Below are positions 7,611 through 17,613 of a stretch of 64,000 bases of DNA, one piece after another. The notes beneath the pieces are model-generated. The model had not been told where the DNA came from. It searched no databases and saw only the letters and a list, made by a program, of their open reading frames with translations. The first letter of the stretch is position 1, and each line of letters starts with the position of its first letter. The translations under genes were made by a program, and so were the position numbers. Origin of the DNA: an uncultured Poribacteria bacterium (lineage in GTDB: Bacteria; Poribacteria; WGA-4E; WGA-3G); the NCBI GenBank assembly GCA_958296135.2, contig CATQHZ020000001.1:1184001-1248000 (forward strand), given 5' to 3'.

Positions 7611-7641
7611 ATTTTTCCTTTGCGATTGCTTGTTAATTCGG

Positions 7642-10600
7642 TTAGGCGGCGGTTCGTGCTTTGCGTTCCGCCTTTGCCTTTTCAAGTTCTGCGGCTGCGT
7701 TGGGTAATTTGATGCCGCGCATTTGTAATGCTAGTTGCTGCGTTGCTAATGCTGCAGCGTCGTCGGCGTAGCCGTGCTTCTCGCCCTCTTCTGCCAAGTC
7801 CACCATGCTGTTTTTCGTTCCAGCGATGCTCGGTTCATCGGACAGCATTGTTCGCAGCGTTTGCATTGCATCGTGGACTGTGGTATCGGTAATCCCCAGC
7901 ACCTCTGTCAGCAGCCGTGCGTCTAGCACATGTCGCCACGCATCCCAACGGCATTCGCTGTATGGTAGCATCCGCGCGTTTTTCACATCGGCGAATACGC
8001 GTTCTGCTGCGTCAATCTGTTCGTCGGAGAGTTTCCGCACATCCAGTGTTGGTACGTTCAGCAACGGTGTCAGCGTTAACTTCCCACGTCCTGGTTGTTG
8101 CTTGCCCGCCATCGCCCAGTGAGACAGCAACCCGAGTGTGGAGTTTGTCCACAGCGTCCATACAGTATCGCCCCGTGTATCATGGAGTGCAATATTTGTG
8201 ATAGACGCAACACCGATGGATGGTTTGTCTGTCCATGGTGCCAATATAGAATTGGCTGGATAGCCCGGTAAAAGATGGTAATGCGTGCGTCTGCTCCTTT
8301 TCAAAATTCGCTGCGCCTTTTCTTCATTACCTGTCCGAATTTTGAATTTGGCATCAGGCTGCGTAACTATTGCTCGCTGAGTCTCGCACTGCACTTGCCA
8401 AAGGCCATCATATCCCTCAACGTCTATATTCTTGTAGGGATCGAATGCGCCGCGCATGCCATCCTTCTCCTTCTTGTCCTTGATATCTGCGGTGTGAAAA
8501 CCAGTTAGACCGATGTCGCCAATTTTGCAAATCGGGATTTCAACGTTTTCTTGCGTCATCGGCAAATGTAACTCGCCAGAAATCAGCCGATGTGTCGTTT
8601 GGAGTAACGACATCGATTGCAGACGTGTCGCGCTCCAAGCTTCATCGTTGATGGGACAATCCATGAATTGCCCGATGATTTCCTCGCCAACGTAAATCGG
8701 TTCCCCGCCAGTGGGGGTATCTTCCTGTTTCCGTACCGCTCTGCACCTCAGGATTCGGTTCGCGACCTCGCTAGCGTCCAACAGGCTCTGTGGCCGCTCC
8801 TTCAGGCAGACAAACGTTGCCCGTCCGGTGTTTTCTCCAACGCCTTTATCAGCGATTACCATGCATTCTGCCATGCTAGTGTCAGCCGAGAATGCGCTGT
8901 TGTAACCGCTATACTGCGCTATAGTTACCACTTTCACGTTGTGGTAAGCCTCCGCCCACATTTTACGAACCTTACGAAATGTTGCGCCTGTAAAAATTGT
9001 TGCAGGCAGAATCATTGCCATGCGCCCGCCATCCCTCAGTTTCCGATGCGCTAACTCCACAAAATAGGAAAATGCGGCTGTCCCATTAGAGACGGTAGTT
9101 TCCTTTTTCGCAAGTTCCTTAAGCATGGCCTTCCGGTCGGCAGCTTGGCGGAATGCGGATGCAAAAACCAGTTTCTGCTTCTTGGAATTATTGTCTGCGC
9201 CATTCGTTAGGTACGGAGGATTCATAATGACGATGTCCATCTCGCCGTGAGGGAACGCCCGTTTCAGTTCAGCCGTTGCGATTTCGTCACCGCCCGCTTG
9301 CTTGCCTTCCGCCTCCATTTCGTCAAACAGCAGTTGGTTGTCCAGCAGCTCCAGAGAACCCGTTTTGAAGCCCCCCGAGGTCTTGCCACAAGGTGCGGTG
9401 ATAACCCGCGTTGCGCCGAGTGTCACCGCGGGTTGCGCGCTCGCCATCGCCGAGAACGTCAGGTGTGTGCAGTGAGAGAAGATGTCGCAGCCCGCCAGAT
9501 TGTTCTCTAGCATGTAGCGGTGGATACCGATGCTGCTCTCGCCTTTCTGTTCTTCCCACAGTTGCTGGATGCGTTTGTAAACGCCGTTCAGCAAAGCCCC
9601 GGTTCCACAGGCGTAGTCGGCAACTTTCGGCAGTGTCTCAAGTGTTGCGTTTTCAGGTAGGCTTGGACATGCGAGTGCCGATATTAACGTTGCGCTTTCT
9701 GGCAAGGTGTAGTTCGCCTTCACCTCTTTCCTGTCGACGAGTAGCGTCTGAAATACCTCTCCCGCCAACTCGTGGATTTGTGGTAGATGGGACTTAATCA
9801 GTTCGCAGGCGGCATTGCACAGTTGCTGCAACACTGTCTCGGCTTTTTCTTCATCGTAGCAGAGTGCGGCATCCAGCATTCGGCGTGCATCGTTGAAGAT
9901 GGGATGGTAGTTCACTTTAAGGATGGCATTCCAGTCGCGCGCCACCTCCGCCAAATCGATGCCGTTCGTCTTGTAGTAGGCAGGCGGCCGCACCGTTTCC
10001 ATCTGCGGTTTTCCTGCGAGAGAATTTTGAAAGACGAATGCGTCCGTGATGATTAAGCATCCGACTCGTGCCATCTGCTCGCCATACTCGCCGCATTCCC
10101 CGCCCAAAATCTCATTCAATCCAGCGGCGACAGCCGGCCGCTCGGTAGCAACTTTGTGTAGTTCACTTGCTGCGTCCTTCACCGCGTTGCCCATCTGTCC
10201 AGCGGCGTTTTGGATGCGCGCGCTCGGCACTGCGCCGAACCGAATGGCGTTAGCGATGTCACTCAGCGTCCCACAAGCAAAGCCCTCTTGAGGAAATCGG
10301 TAATCCGCCCCTTTTGACAATCCGACGAGCACATACTCGATGTCATCAGCGGCCTTTACAGCTTCAAGGAGTTTCCAGCGTCTTAACGGTTTGAAGGTTT
10401 CGGGGTAGCGAACCATCATCACCGTTGTTAACGCCGCGCTCTTTCCGCGGAAATCGGTAGTCAGCGTTTGCCCCCTGTATTTGGCGCAGACCTCCTTGAG
10501 ATTTGCCTCACCCTGATTTGTGGCCCCTTGCCACTTGGCATCGATGGCCACGGTCTCGTGTCCTAAGCGTGTCACCACGATGTCGGGATGCTTCGCGCTT

Positions 10601-10710
10601 CCGTCCAGGACGTTTTCTTGTTCTTCGATTTCCCAGCCAGCGGTACGTGGTAAAACAGCACCTAGCACATCCACAGTCAGACTCGTGACCACGTTCTCTT
10701 TCTTTTTCAC
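7642..10710 (-). CDS. Type IIG-like fused restriction endonuclease / N6-adenine methyltransferase (1022 aa)
   Basis: N-terminal HPDI...AIDAK nuclease motif, motif I VADYACGTG, motif IV NPPY, C-terminal TRD-like region. Confidence 0.85.
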   Translation of the reverse strand: MKKKENVVTSLTVDVLGAVLPRTAGWEIEEQENVLDGSAKHPDIVVTRLGHETVAIDAKWQGATNQGEANLKEVCAKYRGQTLTTDFRGKSAALTTVMMVRYPETFKPLRRWKLLEAVKAADDIEYVLVGLSKGADYRFPQEGFACGTLSDIANAIRFGAVPSARIQNAAGQMGNAVKDAASELHKVATERPAVAAGLNEILGGECGEYGEQMARVGCLIITDAFVFQNSLAGKPQMETVRPPAYYKTNGIDLAEVARDWNAILKVNYHPIFNDARRMLDAALCYDEEKAETVLQQLCNAACELIKSHLPQIHELAGEVFQTLLVDRKEVKANYTLPESATLISALACPSLPENATLETLPKVADYACGTGALLNGVYKRIQQLWEEQKGESSIGIHRYMLENNLAGCDIFSHCTHLTFSAMASAQPAVTLGATRVITAPCGKTSGGFKTGSLELLDNQLLFDEMEAEGKQAGGDEIATAELKRAFPHGEMDIVIMNPPYLTNGADNNSKKQKLVFASAFRQAADRKAMLKELAKKETTVSNGTAAFSYFVELAHRKLRDGGRMAMILPATIFTGATFRKVRKMWAEAYHNVKVVTIAQYSGYNSAFSADTSMAECMVIADKGVGENTGRATFVCLKERPQSLLDASEVANRILRCRAVRKQEDTPTGGEPIYVGEEIIGQFMDCPINDEAWSATRLQSMSLLQTTHRLISGELHLPMTQENVEIPICKIGDIGLTGFHTADIKDKKEKDGMRGAFDPYKNIDVEGYDGLWQVQCETQRAIVTQPDAKFKIRTGNEEKAQRILKRSRRTHYHLLPGYPANSILAPWTDKPSIGVASITNIALHDTRGDTVWTLWTNSTLGLLSHWAMAGKQQPGRGKLTLTPLLNVPTLDVRKLSDEQIDAAERVFADVKNARMLPYSECRWDAWRHVLDARLLTEVLGITDTTVHDAMQTLRTMLSDEPSIAGTKNSMVDLAEEGEKHGYADDAAALATQQLALQMRGIKLPNAAAELEKAKAERKARTAA

Positions 10711-10789
10711 GTTGCTAATCTCCAGTTCTTTTGCTGTTTTCGGGTTCGCGGGTGCGAACTAGGACAGTGGTGTTTTCGTCTTCGGTGCT

Positions 10790-11746
10790 TTATTGCGTGC
10801 TGTCTTCTGCGTAACATTCCTCAAGATATTCATCGGAAACGGTTCCGACGCCATCCTGTGTGACGGTTTTCACAGTTGGGAAGATCTGTGCTTTTGCGTT
10901 ATAGCCGCTCGTTGCTGCGTCGTATTCGCTTGCGGTATCGAGGAGCCGCAAAATGGTGATAGTTGCCTGCCGTTCGTCCATTGCTTCTAGGCGCGTTTCG
11001 CCCCATCGGTTGAGGTACCGTAACACGCCACGGATCCAGATGGAGCCGGAGCCAGTCGTGGCGAAATCGACGTTCTCAAAGTGTGCGCCGAGGGCATCGT
11101 AGAAGAAGATTTTTCCGCCGTTTTCTGTTGAACGTTCGTGAGTGACAGGCTCTGGTGCTGCGGCGGTTGTGGCGTTATTCTTCGTATCGTAAATGGCGAA
11201 GATTGGGATGACACCGCCGATGCCTTGGAGTGCCATCGCGAGGTTATCCCGGATGAGGCGCGAGAGCATCCGCAGTTTTCCCTCTAGGCTCAGCTCTTGT
11301 AGTTGGCTGCGGCGGAAGTATTGGAACGAATGCTCCAATATCCGCGCTATCTCGTACGCAATAGCGGGCGAACCCGAGATAGCGAGGACAGAGTGCCGGT
11401 CGATCTGGAGGACTTTCTCCGCCTTGTCATAGATGACAGAGGTGCCTGCGGTTGCGCGCCGGTCGCCTGCAATCATCACGCCGTTGCGGTAGCGCACGGC
11501 GATGACTGTGGTGCTGTGCGCTATCTCAATATCGTGAGGGACAGGTCCTCGTGCGCCGGTATCGCGCGGTGTAAGCGCGCTCCCGGTCTCGATGCCGGCG
11601 TGTTTCAAGAGGCTGAGAAAGTCGCCTTTGTGGTTAGTCTCCCCGGGTAGGAGCGCGCTTCGTGCACTTAGTGTTGAGGGTTCGCGGGGGACGGGCCCCC
11701 GCGCTACAGCAAGGTGCTCGAATTCCTCGTGGTTCATGGGTTGCAC
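10790..11746 (-). CDS. prcB: Proteasome subunit beta with propeptide
   Basis: AHS|TTVIAVRYRNGVMIAGDRRATAG, TTGSGS, ASEYDAAT. Confidence 0.93.
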   Translation of the reverse strand: MQPMNHEEFEHLAVARGPVPREPSTLSARSALLPGETNHKGDFLSLLKHAGIETGSALTPRDTGARGPVPHDIEIAHSTTVIAVRYRNGVMIAGDRRATAGTSVIYDKAEKVLQIDRHSVLAISGSPAIAYEIARILEHSFQYFRRSQLQELSLEGKLRMLSRLIRDNLAMALQGIGGVIPIFAIYDTKNNATTAAAPEPVTHERSTENGGKIFFYDALGAHFENVDFATTGSGSIWIRGVLRYLNRWGETRLEAMDERQATITILRLLDTASEYDAATSGYNAKAQIFPTVKTVTQDGVGTVSDEYLEECYAEDSTQ

Positions 11747-11748
11747 CT

Positions 11749-11949
11749 CTATTCTCCGGTTCGCTGACGGTATCGGCGCGACTGGTCCTTGTCGACACGG
11801 CGCATCCGCTTGAGCAGTTCCTGCGTATCGGGCCGGTTGACGTTCTGGCGTTTGGGGCCACCGTTATCGCCGTCGCCATCGCCGGGGCCGATCGGTTTGG
11901 TGTCTCGCTGCTTGCGTTCTAGTTGCGTAATCGTAGGGTTCCGTTCCAT
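11749..11949 (-). CDS. ubact: Ubiquitin-like modifier UBact (66 aa)
   Basis: Low-complexity N-terminus, ELLKRMRRVD..RYRQRTGE C-terminus; lies between dop and prcB. Confidence 0.93.
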   Translation of the reverse strand: MERNPTITQLERKQRDTKPIGPGDGDGDNGGPKRQNVNRPDTQELLKRMRRVDKDQSRRYRQRTGE

Positions 11950-12147
11950 TTTTTTGTAGTTCCTTTCGGTTAACAAGCTCCCTCTTAGCAGGGAACCGTT
12001 GTGTTGGTGAATCTGTCATCGACGTTGTCGATTTCTGCGTTTCTGGGCTAATTCTTCTCATTCATGGGGTTCAGACACCGCAGTCTATAGAGCCTAGCGT
12101 GGCGAGGGACAGGTTCCCCTCGCCCTACGGCGGGCAGACTGCATTTG

Positions 12148-13686
12148 TTACAGTTCCAATTTTTTAATCAACGTTTCCACGTTCGGCGATTCGTCAAGTG
12201 CCTTGTTATATTGCTTGGCGATTTCGGCATCAGCGAGTGCGTCCATGTCAACCGAGACGGGGCGGCCGTTCACCCGAAAGGTGATGCTGTCCCACTGGAT
12301 TGCTTTGATGTCTTGACTGAACCGATTGACAGCGTTGCCTCGGAAATAGGCCCGCGTTCCTGCTGGTGGTGCGTGGATGGCTGCGTCGATCTGTTCGTCA
12401 GTTACGACGCGCCGCATCGGGAGTCCATAGAAGAGTCCTTCGTCTTGATGGATGTTGTGGTATTCCAGATCGAGGCTCTGCAGCCACGGGTCATCCCATT
12501 CAAGTCGTTCTTCTTGGGCAAAGGTTTCAAGGAGCCATTTCTTTGCTACCCAATCGAGCCGGTCGGTGAGCGACATCGGGTCCTTCTCCAATGTGTTCAA
12601 CGTATCTTCCCATTCTGTCAGCACCCAGTCAATCTCGAAAGGGGTTGCTATTTTGCTATGGCCGGCCCCGCGCGTTGCGGTATCCTGTGCAAAATGTTTC
12701 TGCGCGAGGGCGAGATATTCACGCTGATGGTCTGGCGCGGACATCGTTTTTCCTTCCGCCGTTGTGACGAGCCACCGATATCCCTGGTCGTGCGAGATAG
12801 TTTTGATGGTGTCAATCGGGTTTGCGAGTGCCAATCTCCTTGGTATTTTGCGTGCTTCAATCAGCGCGATGACGAGTGCGGTTGTGCCGACCTTCAACGC
12901 GGTCGCGTATTCAGACATGTTTGCGTCGCCGACAATTCCGTGCAGTCTTCGATATTTCTTAGCATCGGCGTGCGGTTCATCTCGCGTATTGAAGATGGGG
13001 CGTTGATGCATCGTGTCGACACTTGCTTCGACGTGAAAGAAATCGGAACGCTGTGCGAGCTGAAAATGCCCGGGTGTTGCGAGTCCGGCTTCGGTTTCGA
13101 TGCCGAGTTTGCCTGCGCCGGCGAAAATCTGCCGTGTGACGAAGAAGGGCAGGATGCTCTCCTTGAGGTATTCAAACGGGACTTCCCGTGCCATGAGGTA
13201 GTTATCGTGGCATCCGTAGCTATGCCCTTGGAAATCGGTATTATTTTTAAATAGGAGCACGCGCTTGCCGAGGTGTTCGCTGCGTGTTTCGGCGCACCGC
13301 TGTACGATGCGTTCTCCCGCTTTATCGTGCGCGACCAGGTCGAACAGGCTGCAGCACTCCGGTGTGGCATACTCCGGGTGCGCGTGGTCATTGTAGAGTC
13401 GTGCGCCGTTGCCGAGTATCCGGTCGCTCTTGATTTCGGCGAAGGAGAAGTTGTGGCGCCGGTCGCGTTTCTCTTCTTCCTTTTCATCGGGATGATTGGA
13501 GAGGGTTTTCGCGCGGAAGCCGCGTTCATCACGAAAGGGGTCTTCGCCGCGGTAGTCCCACATCGGCTGAAAGTCCTCCTTGCGATAGCTCTTAATCAAC
13601 TCAATGGATTCCTTGACGGCATCGATGTGCGCTTCGTTTTCAAGGGTGATGCCGTATTCCGTTTCGATGCCAAAAAGTCTTTGCAT
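12148..13686 (-). CDS. dop: Dop-family depupylase/deamidase
   Basis: LFGIETEYG, NGARLYNDHAHPEY (Dop-type), SYGCHDNY, RRLHGIVGDANMSE. Confidence 0.92.
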   Translation of the reverse strand: MQRLFGIETEYGITLENEAHIDAVKESIELIKSYRKEDFQPMWDYRGEDPFRDERGFRAKTLSNHPDEKEEEKRDRRHNFSFAEIKSDRILGNGARLYNDHAHPEYATPECCSLFDLVAHDKAGERIVQRCAETRSEHLGKRVLLFKNNTDFQGHSYGCHDNYLMAREVPFEYLKESILPFFVTRQIFAGAGKLGIETEAGLATPGHFQLAQRSDFFHVEASVDTMHQRPIFNTRDEPHADAKKYRRLHGIVGDANMSEYATALKVGTTALVIALIEARKIPRRLALANPIDTIKTISHDQGYRWLVTTAEGKTMSAPDHQREYLALAQKHFAQDTATRGAGHSKIATPFEIDWVLTEWEDTLNTLEKDPMSLTDRLDWVAKKWLLETFAQEERLEWDDPWLQSLDLEYHNIHQDEGLFYGLPMRRVVTDEQIDAAIHAPPAGTRAYFRGNAVNRFSQDIKAIQWDSITFRVNGRPVSVDMDALADAEIAKQYNKALDESPNVETLIKKLEL

Positions 13687-13783
13687 GGGTTTTGAGTTCC
13701 TCTGTGCGCCTCCTCATGTTGAACGCCCGCGGGGGACAGGTTCTCGCGCTCTGGTATGAGCAATAATCTTGGGAAGAGTGCCG

Positions 13784-15577
13784 CTAAATGACGCGGTTTG
13801 ATACCTTCCGCCGTTCCCGTTTCTCGGTTTTGATAGGCGTAACCTTCACCACATTCGCCGGATCATAGTCAAGTAGTTTGAGCCAGTCTTCCGTTGCTTC
13901 TGTGGGCGGGAAGATTTCGCTTTCGCTGTATTCGGCGTTGAGTGCGTCGAGCAAGTCTGCGCGCGTGATGCCGGCTTCTCGCTCCGGTTCCCGAATTGCC
14001 CGCTTTAGCGCGTACTCTTTTGCGCGTTGCACAATGGACTCGATGATGGCCCCGCTGCAGAGGTGTCCGCGATAGAGAATATCGCGTCTCCCGCTGCGGA
14101 GCGAGACTTCTAGGAATCGGTTATCATCGTCCTCCCGGAACATTTCATCAACCACCTGTCCAATCAGGTCAGTGATGAGTTTCTCTGTGCCGTAGTCTTC
14201 TTCATTTTCTGCCAGTTCGCCTTTCGTCGCGGGTTCTGAGACGAGCGGCAGTTCTGGGGTGAGGTAGATACGGAAAATATCCTTCGCTGCTTCTGCGTTT
14301 GGGCGCGTCACCTTGATTTTTCTATCAATGCGGCCGGGACGCAGAATCGCGGGGTCGACCAGGTCTGGCCGGTTTGTTGCGAGGATAATAACGACATCGT
14401 GGAGCGATTCAATGCCGTCCATCTCTGCGCAGAACATCGGCACCAGCGTATTCGATATGCTGTGTGAGCGTAGGGCGCGGCGGGTGCCTAGAATCGATTC
14501 TGCCTCGTCAATGAAGACAAAGGCGAGTTTTCCTTCTTCGCGTTTCTCGCGGGCGATTTGGAAGATTTCCCTGACTTTCCGTTCGGATTCGCCGAGCCAC
14601 ATGTTGAGGATTTCCGGTCCCTTAATGTGTAGGAAACATCCCTCCACGTCCTCCCCGGTTTCGCTGCGAAGTTGTTCGGTGAGGTTATGCGCGGTTGCCT
14701 TTCCGATGAGCGTCTTCCCGCATCCTGGCGGTCCGTGTAGGAGGAATCCCTTCGGTGCGCTGTATTGGAATTGCTCGAAGAGTTTCGGGTGAAGGATTGG
14801 CAGTTCGATGGTATCCTTGATGAGTTGGATAGTCTGGTCTAGTCCCCCCACCTTCGACCAGGGGATGTCGGGCACCTTTTCAAGAGCGTAATGGTCTGCC
14901 TCTTTCGTGACTATCTGCTCAATTGCGATGCGAAAGTTAGAGTCAATGCGAATTTCGTCGCCCGGCTTCAAGTTGGCCTTGGCGAGTGTTGCGCTGCGTT
15001 CAAGGATGATGGATTGCGCGTTCGGTTCGCCGCCGACCCGGAGTCTGCTGTCGGGCAGTATGTCGGCGATTTTGACGATGGGTCCAGCGTCGCTATATCC
15101 GAGTTCTCCGACGACGACAAAAGCATCGTTCAGCAGCACGCTGTATCCCTTTTCGAGGGCTGCTGGGTTGAGTTCGGGTGCGAGGTTAGCGTAGTATTCG
15201 GATCCGCCGACGATGACGCGGGCGATGTCGTCCTTGTGCAGTCCGAGCAGTGTCCCGATTCGATTTGCTGGGGAAGTGAGTTGCTCGATCTGTTCTTCCA
15301 TCTCGGCATGGATGCGTAGTGCTTCGCGCTGGATGGCTTGCATCCGTTCTTGGAATTCACCCTCATCGCTGAGGATAGAGCGGCGGAGTTCTAGTAGCCA
15401 TCTTCGTCGCCGGTCTTCCACGGGTGTTTCGGAGATGATATGGTGAATGAGCTGCAAGGAATAGCCGGAGCTGCGTTCTTCGTCTTCGGCTTCAAATTCC
15501 TCATCCATCTCGTCTTCAATAAACAGGTCTGGCTCGTTTGTGCGTGCGCCAGGATGTCCACGTTTTTTATCGTACAT
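13784..15577 (-). CDS. arc: Proteasome AAA+ ATPase (ARC/Mpa)
   Basis: Coiled coil + OB region, GPPGCGKT, IKGPEILNMWLGESER, FIDEAES, DPAILRPGRIDRKI. Confidence 0.93.
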   Translation of the reverse strand: MYDKKRGHPGARTNEPDLFIEDEMDEEFEAEDEERSSGYSLQLIHHIISETPVEDRRRRWLLELRRSILSDEGEFQERMQAIQREALRIHAEMEEQIEQLTSPANRIGTLLGLHKDDIARVIVGGSEYYANLAPELNPAALEKGYSVLLNDAFVVVGELGYSDAGPIVKIADILPDSRLRVGGEPNAQSIILERSATLAKANLKPGDEIRIDSNFRIAIEQIVTKEADHYALEKVPDIPWSKVGGLDQTIQLIKDTIELPILHPKLFEQFQYSAPKGFLLHGPPGCGKTLIGKATAHNLTEQLRSETGEDVEGCFLHIKGPEILNMWLGESERKVREIFQIAREKREEGKLAFVFIDEAESILGTRRALRSHSISNTLVPMFCAEMDGIESLHDVVIILATNRPDLVDPAILRPGRIDRKIKVTRPNAEAAKDIFRIYLTPELPLVSEPATKGELAENEEDYGTEKLITDLIGQVVDEMFREDDDNRFLEVSLRSGRRDILYRGHLCSGAIIESIVQRAKEYALKRAIREPEREAGITRADLLDALNAEYSESEIFPPTEATEDWLKLLDYDPANVVKVTPIKTEKRERRKVSNRVI

Positions 15578-15888
15578 CTGTTTGAACGTCTCCTCAGGCG
15601 GAAGGGGATGACTTTACGAAATACATTTTACCCTATTTCGGAATAATTTGCAAATTTTTTTTGCGATGTGCATAAAAAGTTGCTAAAAACCGAGTTGGCA
15701 GTGGCGATTTGCATTAGTATAGCATAAATTAGAAAATAGCTGCAAGAAAAAAGTGATTGGCCCCTTTTTTGAGCGGACTGAAATAACCGTTTTCTGCGAG
15801 AAGGGCTCGGTTAATCTGTGCAGAGCTTCGGCACAGCGGTAAGTTCCCGGTCTAATTCGCGCACTGTGTTCGTTACAAACTTCACGGC

Positions 15889-17613
15889 TTAAGTGCCATA
15901 TTCTGCCGATTCCTCCGATAAATCTGACGGCCGCTCCTGCAAGACCGGCACGACATAACTCCGGATCTGCAATCCGTCTATCGTCTCTGTCTCTACGCGG
16001 GGTTCTGGATTTTTGCGCCTGTCAAACACGACATAGTAGCCTTCCGAAACGCCCTCCGATTTGAGATAGGCAGCAAGCTGCTGTTTGCCGCCCTCATACC
16101 GCCGCTCGCTGTTCCATACCTTGATTTCGACGACATACTTGCGTCCATTGTGGAACACCACCAGATCCATCCGGCCCCGTCCCGTTGGCAGCTCCAAGTA
16201 CATGTCCCCGCGCACTGCCTGCACAAATGCATCCAGGTACGTGGCAAGGAGATGCTGCCCAACGGATTCCTTTGGAATGCCCGGTACTTGCAGAATCCGA
16301 AACCCAATGCGTGCGATGAAAGCGCGGAAGTTATCCAGCAGCGATGTCATGTCAATCTGTCCATCGGCGGTGAGGTAATCCGCGAATTCTGCACCGGTTC
16401 TTTCGGGGAAGTAGTCGTTCTCTAACCCGTTGGTAGCCGGTTGGAACGCTTGCATGACGCGGTACTGATAAATCGGGTTGACAATCTCACACCACCTGTC
16501 GGGTCCTTTCGTGATGACACCGGCTGTGGCAAGTTCGCGCATGAGTTCATTGTCGGGGTTGAAAAGGATGCCTTTCTCCGAGGTGGCGATTTCCATGAGG
16601 AGGCTTTCAAACCGTGCGTCTCGGCGAATATTGGTAGTCAGATGTTCTATGTTGACGTTAACTTCCTCAAGGATGCCGGTGTGTGCCTTCGCGAAGTGCG
16701 CGAGGGTGATGGGCACGTCTTTCGGGATGTCCATCTCCGCGGTGAGTATCTGCGCGAGGCGGTTGACGAGGAACGGCTGTCCGCCGGTCTGCCGGTGCAG
16801 TGCCTCAATCACCTCAGCGGCGAACGCCTGTCCCACTTCGTCGGTATACTGTCCAAGGAGTTCTGCCACCTGCGTCAATGTGAAGTTCTGCAACGTAAAC
16901 TCATCTTGGATATTAAACGGGGAGATAGTCCTGTCATAGTTGAGCTGCTTGATGCTCTTAACGCCGATGATGCCGACGCTGTGGATACATCGCTCTCCTC
17001 TCGTGAGGTAAATGCGGCGGAGGGTATGAAGGAACCCCTTCGCGGCGGCGTGAGGGATACCATCAAACTCGTCGATGATGAGCACGACCCGGGGAGCGCG
17101 CGGTGGGGCTGCAGCTTTACCCTGTATCGCCCCGAATTCCGTAGGGCGCGGGCCTGTCCCTCGCGGTGGGGCATCTGTTCCCTGCTGGCTGAGCAGAGGT
17201 GTCAGCTGTCCAAAGAATCTTCCCATTGAGAGATGGTTGGTTATTTTCGCCTGGGTTAAGAATTCGCTTAACTCTGCAGTGGGTTCTAAGCCGCGCTTTT
17301 GGAAGACGTTTGCAATTTCCACGCGAATATCTGGGTAAAGGTCTTCGTAAAAATCGGCAGGTTCCACGTCTTCATATACCTCAAAATTGAGTTGAATTGG
17401 GAAGTAGTCGGGCTCTTCGGCCATGAGCGCGTCGAGCGCGTTTTGGAAGAACGTGGTCTTTCCAGTTTGGCGCGGCGCGAAGAGGACGATATAACGTCCC
17501 TCTTTTACGCGGTTGATAAAATCGGTGAGTTCCTCCGTGCGCGAGACAACATAATGGTCGGTCGGATTCACGGGCCCGCGGGTGCCAAACGTTTTTCGAT
17601 GTCGGTTTTCCAT
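15889..17613 (-). CDS. AAA-like ATPase with C-terminal PD-(D/E)xK-like domain
   Basis: APRQTGKTT, LIIDEFD, SPFNI, TGGQPFLV, GRMDLVV...VEIK. Confidence 0.85.
   Translation of the reverse strand: MENRHRKTFGTRGPVNPTDHYVVSRTEELTDFINRVKEGRYIVLFAPRQTGKTTFFQNALDALMAEEPDYFPIQLNFEVYEDVEPADFYEDLYPDIRVEIANVFQKRGLEPTAELSEFLTQAKITNHLSMGRFFGQLTPLLSQQGTDAPPRGTGPRPTEFGAIQGKAAAPPRAPRVVLIIDEFDGIPHAAAKGFLHTLRRIYLTRGERCIHSVGIIGVKSIKQLNYDRTISPFNIQDEFTLQNFTLTQVAELLGQYTDEVGQAFAAEVIEALHRQTGGQPFLVNRLAQILTAEMDIPKDVPITLAHFAKAHTGILEEVNVNIEHLTTNIRRDARFESLLMEIATSEKGILFNPDNELMRELATAGVITKGPDRWCEIVNPIYQYRVMQAFQPATNGLENDYFPERTGAEFADYLTADGQIDMTSLLDNFRAFIARIGFRILQVPGIPKESVGQHLLATYLDAFVQAVRGDMYLELPTGRGRMDLVVFHNGRKYVVEIKVWNSERRYEGGKQQLAAYLKSEGVSEGYYVVFDRRKNPEPRVETETIDGLQIRSYVVPVLQERPSDLSEESAEYGT

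Follow-up and report, generated by a model that had tools for sequence, protein, structure and literature searches.

Restriction-modification (RM) systems are reported to act as mobile units that need no other mobility genes and to enter operon-like gene clusters (PMC2853133, PMC2993543), and an enrichment of RM genes in sponge symbionts has been reported (PMC5649159). A literature search turned up no paper whose title or abstract concerned UBact in bacteria or the order of the UBact genes. Here we describe a locus at which an RM-like gene stands inside a proteasome operon. The locus lies in a 64,000-nt stretch of the genome of an uncultured Poribacteria bacterium, a sponge symbiont (assembly GCA_958296135.2, contig CATQHZ020000001.1); this whole stretch is the window, and coordinates are positions in it unless stated otherwise. 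The gene, called X below, is an open reading frame (ORF) of 1022 amino acids (aa) between prcB and prcA, which encode the beta and alpha subunits of the 20S proteasome, and all genes of the operon are on the minus strand. With a probability of roughly 0.72, the best explanation of the data is that X, a gene of the type IIG kind, is an ancestral insertion in its genus that has since been inherited vertically, kept under purifying selection and transcribed with the operon.

The prcB-prcA interval and its history

X is present and intact between prcB and prcA, with pafA following, in all three species of the genus: in the genome under study (G000) and, as orthologs 78% and 76% identical, in the other two species (G001 and G002, respectively). 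Among the three species the pairwise ratio of nonsynonymous to synonymous substitution rates (dN/dS) is 0.13–0.20 for X, 0.07–0.08 for prcA and 0.12–0.13 for the shared part of prcB, and the value for X indicates that it is under purifying selection. The prcA protein is 91–92% identical in G001 and G002.

We compared the interval across 112 genomes of the family, of which 111 have prcA and prcB and 110 have both on a single contig (gaps computed by hand, between alignment ends). X lies between the two genes in 3 of these 110 genomes; the other 107 are without it. The gap is ~3.2 kb in the genus of X (3/3), 5–8 bp in every genome of genus g2 (39/39), 42 bp in g6, 92 and 202 bp in g4 and 331 bp in g3. 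In genus g5 it measures 24–450 bp in 60 of 65 genomes and 1.19–1.29 kb in four, and in the remaining one (G082) the pair is split over two contigs. That prcB and prcA are normally adjacent, as the sequence-only reading of this DNA had assumed, is borne out by the 103 of 110 genomes with a gap of at most 450 bp. An order-level survey of 41 genomes includes 16 that belong to three other families; both genes were found in 15 of these, 14–78 bp apart and never with X between them (0/15). X is likewise missing from the nine metagenome contigs that carry both genes, where the gaps are 9–242 bp (0/9). Measured from stop to start codon, the spacer is 3179, 3193 and 3208 bp in G000, G001 and G002, and 0 bp in G017, 83 bp in G005, 196 bp in G012, 283 bp in G006, 328 bp in G004 (an outgroup from another genus) and 1250 bp in G018. 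From genus g2 and the other families of the order we infer that an abutting prcB-prcA pair is ancestral. The motif CGCAAGGAA...AAAAATG that precedes prcA is common to genera with and without X, which argues that X landed in a pre-existing, already widened spacer.

The arrangement cannot be attributed to faulty assembly. Logan contigs bridge both junctions (pieces 7431–9580 and 9565 to beyond 12000); they come from four runs on a single sample, possibly the very runs from which the assembly was made. The same prcB-X-prcA arrangement in the assemblies of two other species is the stronger evidence, and together they rule out an artefact. A chance insertion in a single strain is ruled out by the ortholog at the same position in all three species of the genus. 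The sequence-only reading had proposed to give way if reads failed to span the junctions or if X proved to be transcribed independently and present in this strain only; the junctions are bridged by contigs and the insertion is common to three species. Logan contigs break at 7423–7460 and 9551–9594, where depth is 2–3 times that of the surroundings, as if short sequences at these two places recurred exactly at other loci; the repeat at 9551–9594 may be shared with X paralogs.

At the locus itself, the prcB stop codon TAA occupies 10792–10790 and the prcA ATG begins at 7610. The orientation of X, its distances to the prcB stop and the prcA start and its own GGAG, all given in the sequence-only reading, proved exact. 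We found no direct or inverted repeats bracketing the insert other than short, probably chance, matches, and no transposase or integrase at the locus, where the immediate neighbours are prcB and prcA; the signal scan and repeat search agree with the earlier reading, in which no terminator, transposase, terminal repeat or target duplication was seen. The prcB-X spacer of G001 holds two hairpin elements resembling repetitive extragenic palindromes (REP-like). In the X-prcA spacer of G002 (L003 ~4575–4649), ~50 nt of extra sequence replace a few bases relative to G000 and G001; this sequence has a perfect 10-bp hairpin and repeats the first 13 nt of prcA (ATGCGAGACGAAC).

X is not the only gene to have entered the interval. 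The 1250-bp spacer of G018 contains a co-oriented gene for a 368-aa Kelch-repeat protein (Kelch_1 1.1e-75; L027:3941-5047) with a signal-peptide-like hydrophobic N-terminus, and its orthologs (70–73% identity) occupy the same place in G113, G097 and G091 (L043, L044, L045), making four species in total, all of another genus than that of X. In G082 a co-oriented gene for an 856-aa WD40-repeat protein (WD40 1.4e-103; L041:380-2950) begins 30 bp after prcB; the protein has a signal-peptide-like N-terminus and, judged by eye, a C-terminal tail of the secretion-sorting type. The contig ends after this gene and prcA is on a separate 1166-bp contig with 657 bp of AT-rich sequence upstream (L042:1-657), and the WD40 gene likely lies between prcB and prcA. 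In the widened spacers of G084, G114 and G096, tblastn at E 1e-5 detected no trace of either X or the Kelch gene. The prcB-prcA interval has therefore captured at least two, probably three, unrelated genes in different lineages. The comparison of related genomes that had been proposed as a check accordingly returned empty intervals in most relatives and other cargo in some. Of the earlier suggestion of a variable defence slot, variability is supported, with the Kelch gene in four species and the WD40 gene after prcB in a fifth, but defence is not, these cargos being non-defence genes.

We scanned positions 5000–16200 for promoters and terminators by consensus. On the minus strand, neither spacer flanking X showed a promoter-like or terminator-like site (with a crude sigma-70 consensus that may not suit this phylum), and a promoter-like site was found upstream of the ATPase gene at 15654–15625 (minus strand). 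Since both short spacers are free of such signals, X appears to be co-transcribed with the operon, with prcA and pafA read through X; most likely, X is transcribed within the UBact-proteasome operon from the promoter upstream of the ATPase gene. Among the paralogs of X, 4/11 have a sigma-70-like match within 200 nt upstream, and the copy at the prc locus has none. The sequence-only reading had offered a selfish RM gene that shelters in a housekeeping operon under the operon's own promoter. This view agrees with the signal-free spacers, the retention under purifying selection in 3/3 species and the differences between species in gain and loss of family copies.

Predicted architecture of X

In its predicted structure, X has the full single-chain architecture of a type IIG RM enzyme with catalytic motifs intact, and it would be expected to be active. 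Endonuclease, N6-adenine methyltransferase and recognition domains are found in one polypeptide, together with a PD-(D/E)xK motif and methyltransferase motifs I and IV (domain limits in the table below), and the type IIG-like label given earlier is thus supported by motifs as well as fold. The nuclease motif reads HPDIVV...VAIDAKW (PD...DAK, aa 42–59), motif I is VADYACGTGALL and includes DYACGTG (~aa 365), and motif IV is IVIMNPPYL, in which NPPY spans aa 497–500. Residues D43, K59, G369, G371, N497, P498 and P499 do not vary among the 28 family members aligned. The first two are also invariant in a set of 16 N-terminal domains, and in both sets position 57 is D or E. In the G000 paralog translations the PD..(D/E)xK motif is visible in 7/11. 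Conservation along X is fairly even, with the nuclease domain and residues 651–800 most variable, the latter being the least conserved stretch following the methyltransferase core; over the last 22 residues conservation falls to 0.29.

The full protein was modelled with AlphaFold2 from 28 family members, giving a mean predicted local distance difference test (pLDDT) of 80.8 and a predicted template modelling score (pTM) of 0.82. Residues 1–165 were folded separately from 16 paralogous N-terminal domains, all 11 G000 paralogs included (pLDDT 87.7). Structures were compared with Foldseek, with VIA as a second look, and the isolated nuclease domain was compared with 48,161 chains. For the full model, Foldseek placed the type IIG enzyme BpuSI first (E 2.7e-17), followed by CamA, PglX/BrxX, DrdV and type I M subunits. 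CamA superposes with Z 24.1 over 469 aligned residues (model 329–940) at a root-mean-square deviation (rmsd) of 4.2; the type I M subunits 2okc and 3khk give Z 23.0 and 21.3, BrxX Z 21.1, M.BseCI Z 20.7 and M.TaqI Z 19.1. DrdV aligns with Z 20.5 over 676 residues (rmsd 8.0, residues 1–940) and BpuSI with Z 19.8 over 602 residues (rmsd 10.9, model 171–967). The best match of the isolated nuclease domain is the N-terminal nuclease of BpuSI (Z 9.3, 132 aligned, rmsd 3.5, chain residues 20–172), and the N-terminus of DrdV is also matched (Z 8.4, 117 aligned, rmsd 3.5); nucleases of the PD-(D/E)xK type make up most of the remaining rows listed, and the large majority of the weaker Foldseek rows are restriction-endonuclease-like folds.

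By sequence, Pfam recognises the methyltransferase core of X alone (Eco57I 1.7e-11, 45 bits versus a cut-off of 25.3, aa 475–597 only; N6_Mtase 1.6e-5). Matches in NCBIfam and PADLOC are weak; they are to MAD2, PglX, type II methyltransferases and type IIG fusions, and where a curated cut-off exists every one of them falls far short of it. A sequence search of the PDB returned PglX/BrxX only (E 0.002–0.003). Several better described families were considered for X and rejected: BREX PglX (22 bits versus an NCBIfam cut-off of 500, and neighbours that are prcB and prcA, not BREX genes), MADS MAD2 (37.3 bits versus 720) and, by sequence, the MmeI family, none of whose Pfam domains was found at E up to 1. 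One distant relative of X matches MmeI_Mtase at E 0.058.

Features of the operon and of X in the window. Evidence values are E-values of profile matches where a family is named.
Feature	Position	Strand	Evidence
X, whole gene, 1022 aa	7642..10710	-	GTG start at 10710; stop TAA 7644-7642
X aa 1-160, putative PD-(D/E)xK endonuclease domain (D43, D57, K59)	10231..10710	-	motif and fold
X aa 161-330, predicted helical domain, resembles N-terminal domain of HsdM-type methyltransferases	9721..10230	-	type I M subunits align from model residue ~162-167
X aa 331-650, predicted gamma-class N6-adenine DNA methyltransferase core	8761..9720	-	motif I DYACGTG, motif IV NPPY; Pfam Eco57I, N6_Mtase
X aa 651-950, predicted target-recognition domain, TaqI/CamA/BseCI type	7861..8760	-	CamA, M.BseCI and M.TaqI alignments reach model residues 894-952
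X aa 951-1022, C-terminal helices and stop codon	7642..7860	-	model secondary structure
prcB-X spacer, 79 bp	10711..10789	-	GGAG 9-12 nt before GTG start
X-prcA spacer, 31 bp	7611..7641	-	holds prcA ribosome-binding site AAGGAAAAAT
Proteasomal AAA+ ATPase (Mpa/ARC-like), first gene of the operon	13784..15577	-	Pfam AAA 1.2e-31, Prot_ATP_ID_OB_N 2.3e-16, Prot_ATP_ID_OB_C 4.7e-11
Dop-like Pup-ligase-family protein	12148..13686	-	Pfam Pup_ligase 8.3e-165; TIGR03688 depupylase_Dop 3.2e-140, under curated cut-off
Small UBact-like modifier ORF	11749..11976	-	translation ends ...RRYRQRTGE
prcB, 20S proteasome beta subunit	10790..11746	-	Pfam Proteasome 2.6e-21; TIGR03690 20S_bact_beta 4.1e-47
prcA, 20S proteasome alpha subunit	6834..7610	-	TIGR03691 20S_bact_alpha 7.4e-17; Pfam Proteasome 1.1e-4 on longer ORF
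PafA-like ligase, last gene of the operon	5280..6734	-	Pfam Pup_ligase 5.8e-134; TIGR03686 1.2e-107
Second full-length X paralog, ~47-49% identical	60326..63529	-	similarity to X

The genes around X form a co-oriented operon in the order ATPase, Dop-like protein, UBact, prcB, X, prcA and PafA-like ligase, and thus include what a Pup/UBact-proteasome operon is expected to hold: an ATPase, ligases of the Dop and PafA types, a small modifier and both 20S subunits. An equivalent order of these components occurs in G018, G004, G012, G005, G006 and G017. The small ORF, with its C-terminal signature, is presumably a UBact-type modifier; its real start is probably an internal ATG ~27 nt downstream of the listed TTG, and a homologous 65-aa ORF in G018 has an identical C-terminal end. 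The guanine-cytosine (GC) content of X (0.50–0.56) is slightly under that of its neighbours (0.52–0.59). G000 has a second complete proteasome operon of the Pup/UBact type beside recA (G000:C1:2258000-2272000), with an ATPase, a Pup_ligase gene, prcB2, prcA2 (25-bp gap) and a further Pup_ligase gene. Across the order, a second prcB-type match was found in 40/41 genomes and a second prcA-type match in 30/41 (E 1e-10 or better).

Paralogs of X and gain or loss of copies

The gene at the prc locus belongs to an expanded family. G000 holds 15 matches to X, of which 11 are full-length (at least 940 of 1022 residues, 40–64% identity) and four are fragments. Two of the fragments belong to a split copy at 2.77 Mb, one is a C-terminal fragment at 0.385 Mb and one is an ORF limited to the N-terminal domain that adjoins the paralog in the window. 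G001 has 23 matches and G002 has 21 (11 full-length), and the family is found in 31/41 genomes of the order. The split copy (G000:C1:2769802-2772685) consists of two adjacent ORFs (aa 12–347 and aa 362–970), and G002 shows the same split at 795415–798352; the copy may be decaying, or the split may be its natural state. Directly after the window paralog, a 252-aa ORF (59531–60289, minus strand) has an N-terminus 34% identical to the nuclease domain over aa 1–160 and no Pfam match.

A scan of neighbours showed that each of the 10 full-length paralogs outside the window stands alone between unrelated genes, among them genes for decarboxylases, sulfatases, PhyH dioxygenases, DUF1501/PSD1 pairs, a response regulator and MurB. 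The hits for the neighbours of these 10 paralogs include no transposase or integrase family, and the 11 paralogs share no flanks or terminal repeats except for REP-like intergenic elements around some of them. GC-rich hairpin elements of the REP-like kind flank paralogs p1244, p3001, p3311, p4076 and p4252. A ~60-nt element resembling REP or a miniature inverted-repeat transposable element (MITE) at G000:C1 ~3127279–3127338 has ~50 matches in G002 and many in G001. Beside paralog p2359 (G000:C1 ~2355200–2359900) stand seven co-oriented tandem ORFs of 201–224 aa, two of which were scanned and had no Pfam match.

The wider family is large. A word-indexed search found at least 675 clusters at 90% identity, nearly all unnamed and five of them 75–79% identical, and an exhaustive search of 50%-identity clusters gave 2523 at E up to 1e-3, 1638 at E up to 1e-10 and 626 at E up to 1e-30; a large number of these are full-length, with 29–36% identity. 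Pfam barely recognises the distant members. A full-length relative is encoded on a Nitrosospira plasmid (31.6% identity over 91% of the query), and phage records returned partial matches to the methyltransferase region only, at 25% identity, in haloarchaeal viruses.

Copies differ in their stability between species. Paralog p3001 is syntenic in all three species of the genus. At site 1 (L038), G001 and G002 carry a copy between the same flanks, which are 130 bp apart in G000, where the copy is missing. Comparison of the filled and empty sites shows an insert of ~3.43 kb that brings along a promoter-like TTGAAA...TGTGGTATAGT and a ribosome-binding site; its edges are clean, without target duplication or terminal repeats, and the last codons of the upstream gene are replaced. 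The outgroup G004 has ~1.3 kb of other sequence at this place, and the difference at site 1 may be either a gain of the copy or its loss in G000. At site 2 (L037), a degenerate copy is present in G001, the site is empty in G000 and in G004, and G002 is rearranged there; the structure is complex, with a 97-bp segment present twice. Since the site is empty in both G000 and the outgroup, the copy is a gain in the G001 lineage.

Competing explanations and comparison with described systems

We suggest that, in the ancestor of the genus, one copy of the X family entered the prcB-prcA spacer after this had widened, presumably by an illegitimate event without target duplication, and that it would thereafter have been inherited vertically and held intact by purifying selection. 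X would methylate adenine in its own recognition site and cut unmodified DNA, as its structural relatives do, and its position in the operon may help to retain it. The insertion was perhaps tolerated through the earlier loss of the abutting prcB-prcA arrangement and the existence of a second complete proteasome operon. Ordinary defence selection, post-segregational killing or polarity on prcA might each account for retention.

Several results weigh against this explanation. The synonymous divergence (dS) of X among the three species (0.82–1.06) exceeds that of prcA and prcB (0.40–0.67), perhaps because X evolves faster, has undergone gene conversion with paralogs or is not strictly orthologous. 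As to transcription, the scan detected 8 promoter-like sites versus 5.9 expected by chance and has low power, and six other paralogs likewise have no sigma-70-like match, so that its absence at the prc locus is weak evidence. As to the type IIG assignment, the PADLOC REase_MTase_IIG models match X at E 4.4e-6 to 1.5e-3, mostly over short stretches, and X has none of the MmeI_* Pfam domains (N, hel, Mtase, TRD, C) at E up to 1, in a search whose HMMER filters drop many weak matches. The Z of 8–9 for the nuclease domain is only just above a level common for the search tool, and with Foldseek the isolated domain has no match at E 0.001 or better. Finally, the alignment shows no hypervariable recognition block separating the paralogs, so that distinct specificities are no more than possible.

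Three rival explanations can be set against these data. The interval might be a functional cargo slot whose genes are co-expressed with the UBact-proteasome, for instance under stress, X being a regulated substrate or a defence coupled to proteostasis. Three different co-oriented cargos in or after the same interval (X in three species, the Kelch gene in four, the WD40 gene in G082), a spacer widened from 0–8 bp to 24–450 bp in four genera and the purifying selection on X would all agree with such a slot; however, an RM enzyme and two secreted repeat proteins have no function in common, and bridged cargo occurs in only 7/110 genomes, with G082 as an eighth candidate whose contig breaks, and in 0/9 metagenome contigs. 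Ten other full-length X paralogs are found at unrelated loci, nothing in the sequence links X to UBact, and the second operon has a tight prcB2-prcA2 pair, so redundancy can explain why an insertion was tolerated. We therefore regard the cargo slot as unlikely, and a functional tie of X to UBact tagging or proteasomal turnover is speculation with no support beyond position. A domesticated or orphan methyltransferase, whose nuclease no longer cuts and which serves epigenetic regulation instead of restriction, seems very improbable: the PD-(D/E)xK catalytic residues are invariant in the 28 family members and in all paralogs compared, and the nuclease domain is full-length in all 11 copies, even though the best structural match for residues 311–949 is the orphan methyltransferase CamA (Z 24.1) and eleven active restriction enzymes side by side would weigh heavily on one genome.

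X might also be a self-mobilising selfish gene that spreads through its own nuclease by break-induced illegitimate insertion, the prc copy having become fixed because its loss is costly, through post-segregational killing or polarity on prcA and pafA. We see no insertion mechanism, p3001 is syntenic in three species and the prc copy is stable, most copies may be old duplicates, and one of the two polymorphic sites (site 1) is unpolarised and could be a loss in G000. On the side of selfish spread are the 11 full-length copies plus fragments in both G000 and G002, their solitary positions with unshared flanks and no mobility-gene family among the scanned neighbours, the presence/absence variation between species with one gain polarised by the outgroup, site 1, where the edges are clean, no target duplication is seen and the upstream gene has had its 3' end replaced, the degenerate and split copies, and the full-length relative (31.6% identity) on a plasmid; PMC2853133 also describes RM units that move without other mobile elements. 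On balance such an origin appears improbable. A broader version, to which we give a slim chance, holds that the family would propagate itself within Poribacteria genomes by nuclease-driven insertion, free of target duplication and of any need for a transposase, that the prc copy would be 'operon-locked' by the read-through of prcA and pafA, selection acting against any loss or disruption that impairs it, and that the spacer, with its Kelch and WD40 genes, would be a natural site of gene capture; if this were true, foreign genes captured in the prcB-prcA spacer would gain housekeeping-level expression.

The reading that we prefer, an ancestral insertion of a type IIG-like gene kept by selection, makes the locus a defence gene fixed in an essential-looking operon in three species, with empty sites and alternative cargos in relatives, and suited to work on how operons accommodate and keep insertions. 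A functional link between restriction and the proteasome does not follow from it. The X family is sizeable, essentially unannotated and of type IIG architecture, and might supply new restriction specificities; it also gives a concrete view of how RM genes are stacked in sponge symbionts.

Of the enzymes of known structure, BpuSI (PDB 3s1s) shares with X the domain order of nuclease, helical connector, gamma-class N6-adenine methyltransferase and recognition domain; however, identity is ~10–13%, no sequence search linked the two, and as wholes they superpose poorly (rmsd 10.9), which a different arrangement of the domains would explain. DrdV of the MmeI family (type IIL; PDB 7lo5, 7lvv) is, like X, a single chain of ~1000 aa and the sole structure aligning from model residue 1 to 940, but it differs in the MmeI_* Pfam domains that X lacks at E up to 1, and its identity to X is ~10% (rmsd 8.0). 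CamA, M.BseCI and M.TaqI are the best structural matches for the methyltransferase and recognition half of X, whereas they stand alone without its N-terminal nuclease and helical domain. BREX PglX/BrxX and MADS MAD2 have the same Eco57I-like methyltransferase core (NCBIfam MAD2 match, E 9.9e-10), but no partner genes of these systems adjoin X, which in addition has a nuclease domain. In gene context, the closest parallels are the RM insertions described by the Kobayashi group (PMC2853133, PMC2993543), where, as here, an RM gene without a linked mobility gene lies inside a co-oriented housekeeping cluster and relatives have empty sites. The cases described in PMC2853133 show long target duplications or flanking repeats, unlike the X locus and site 1, which have none, and the insertion of X is old and common to three species. 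Overall, X represents a familiar kind of element, a solitary RM gene of type IIG-like character whose family is expanded and uncurated; what is unusual is its position, which has remained stable in evolution.

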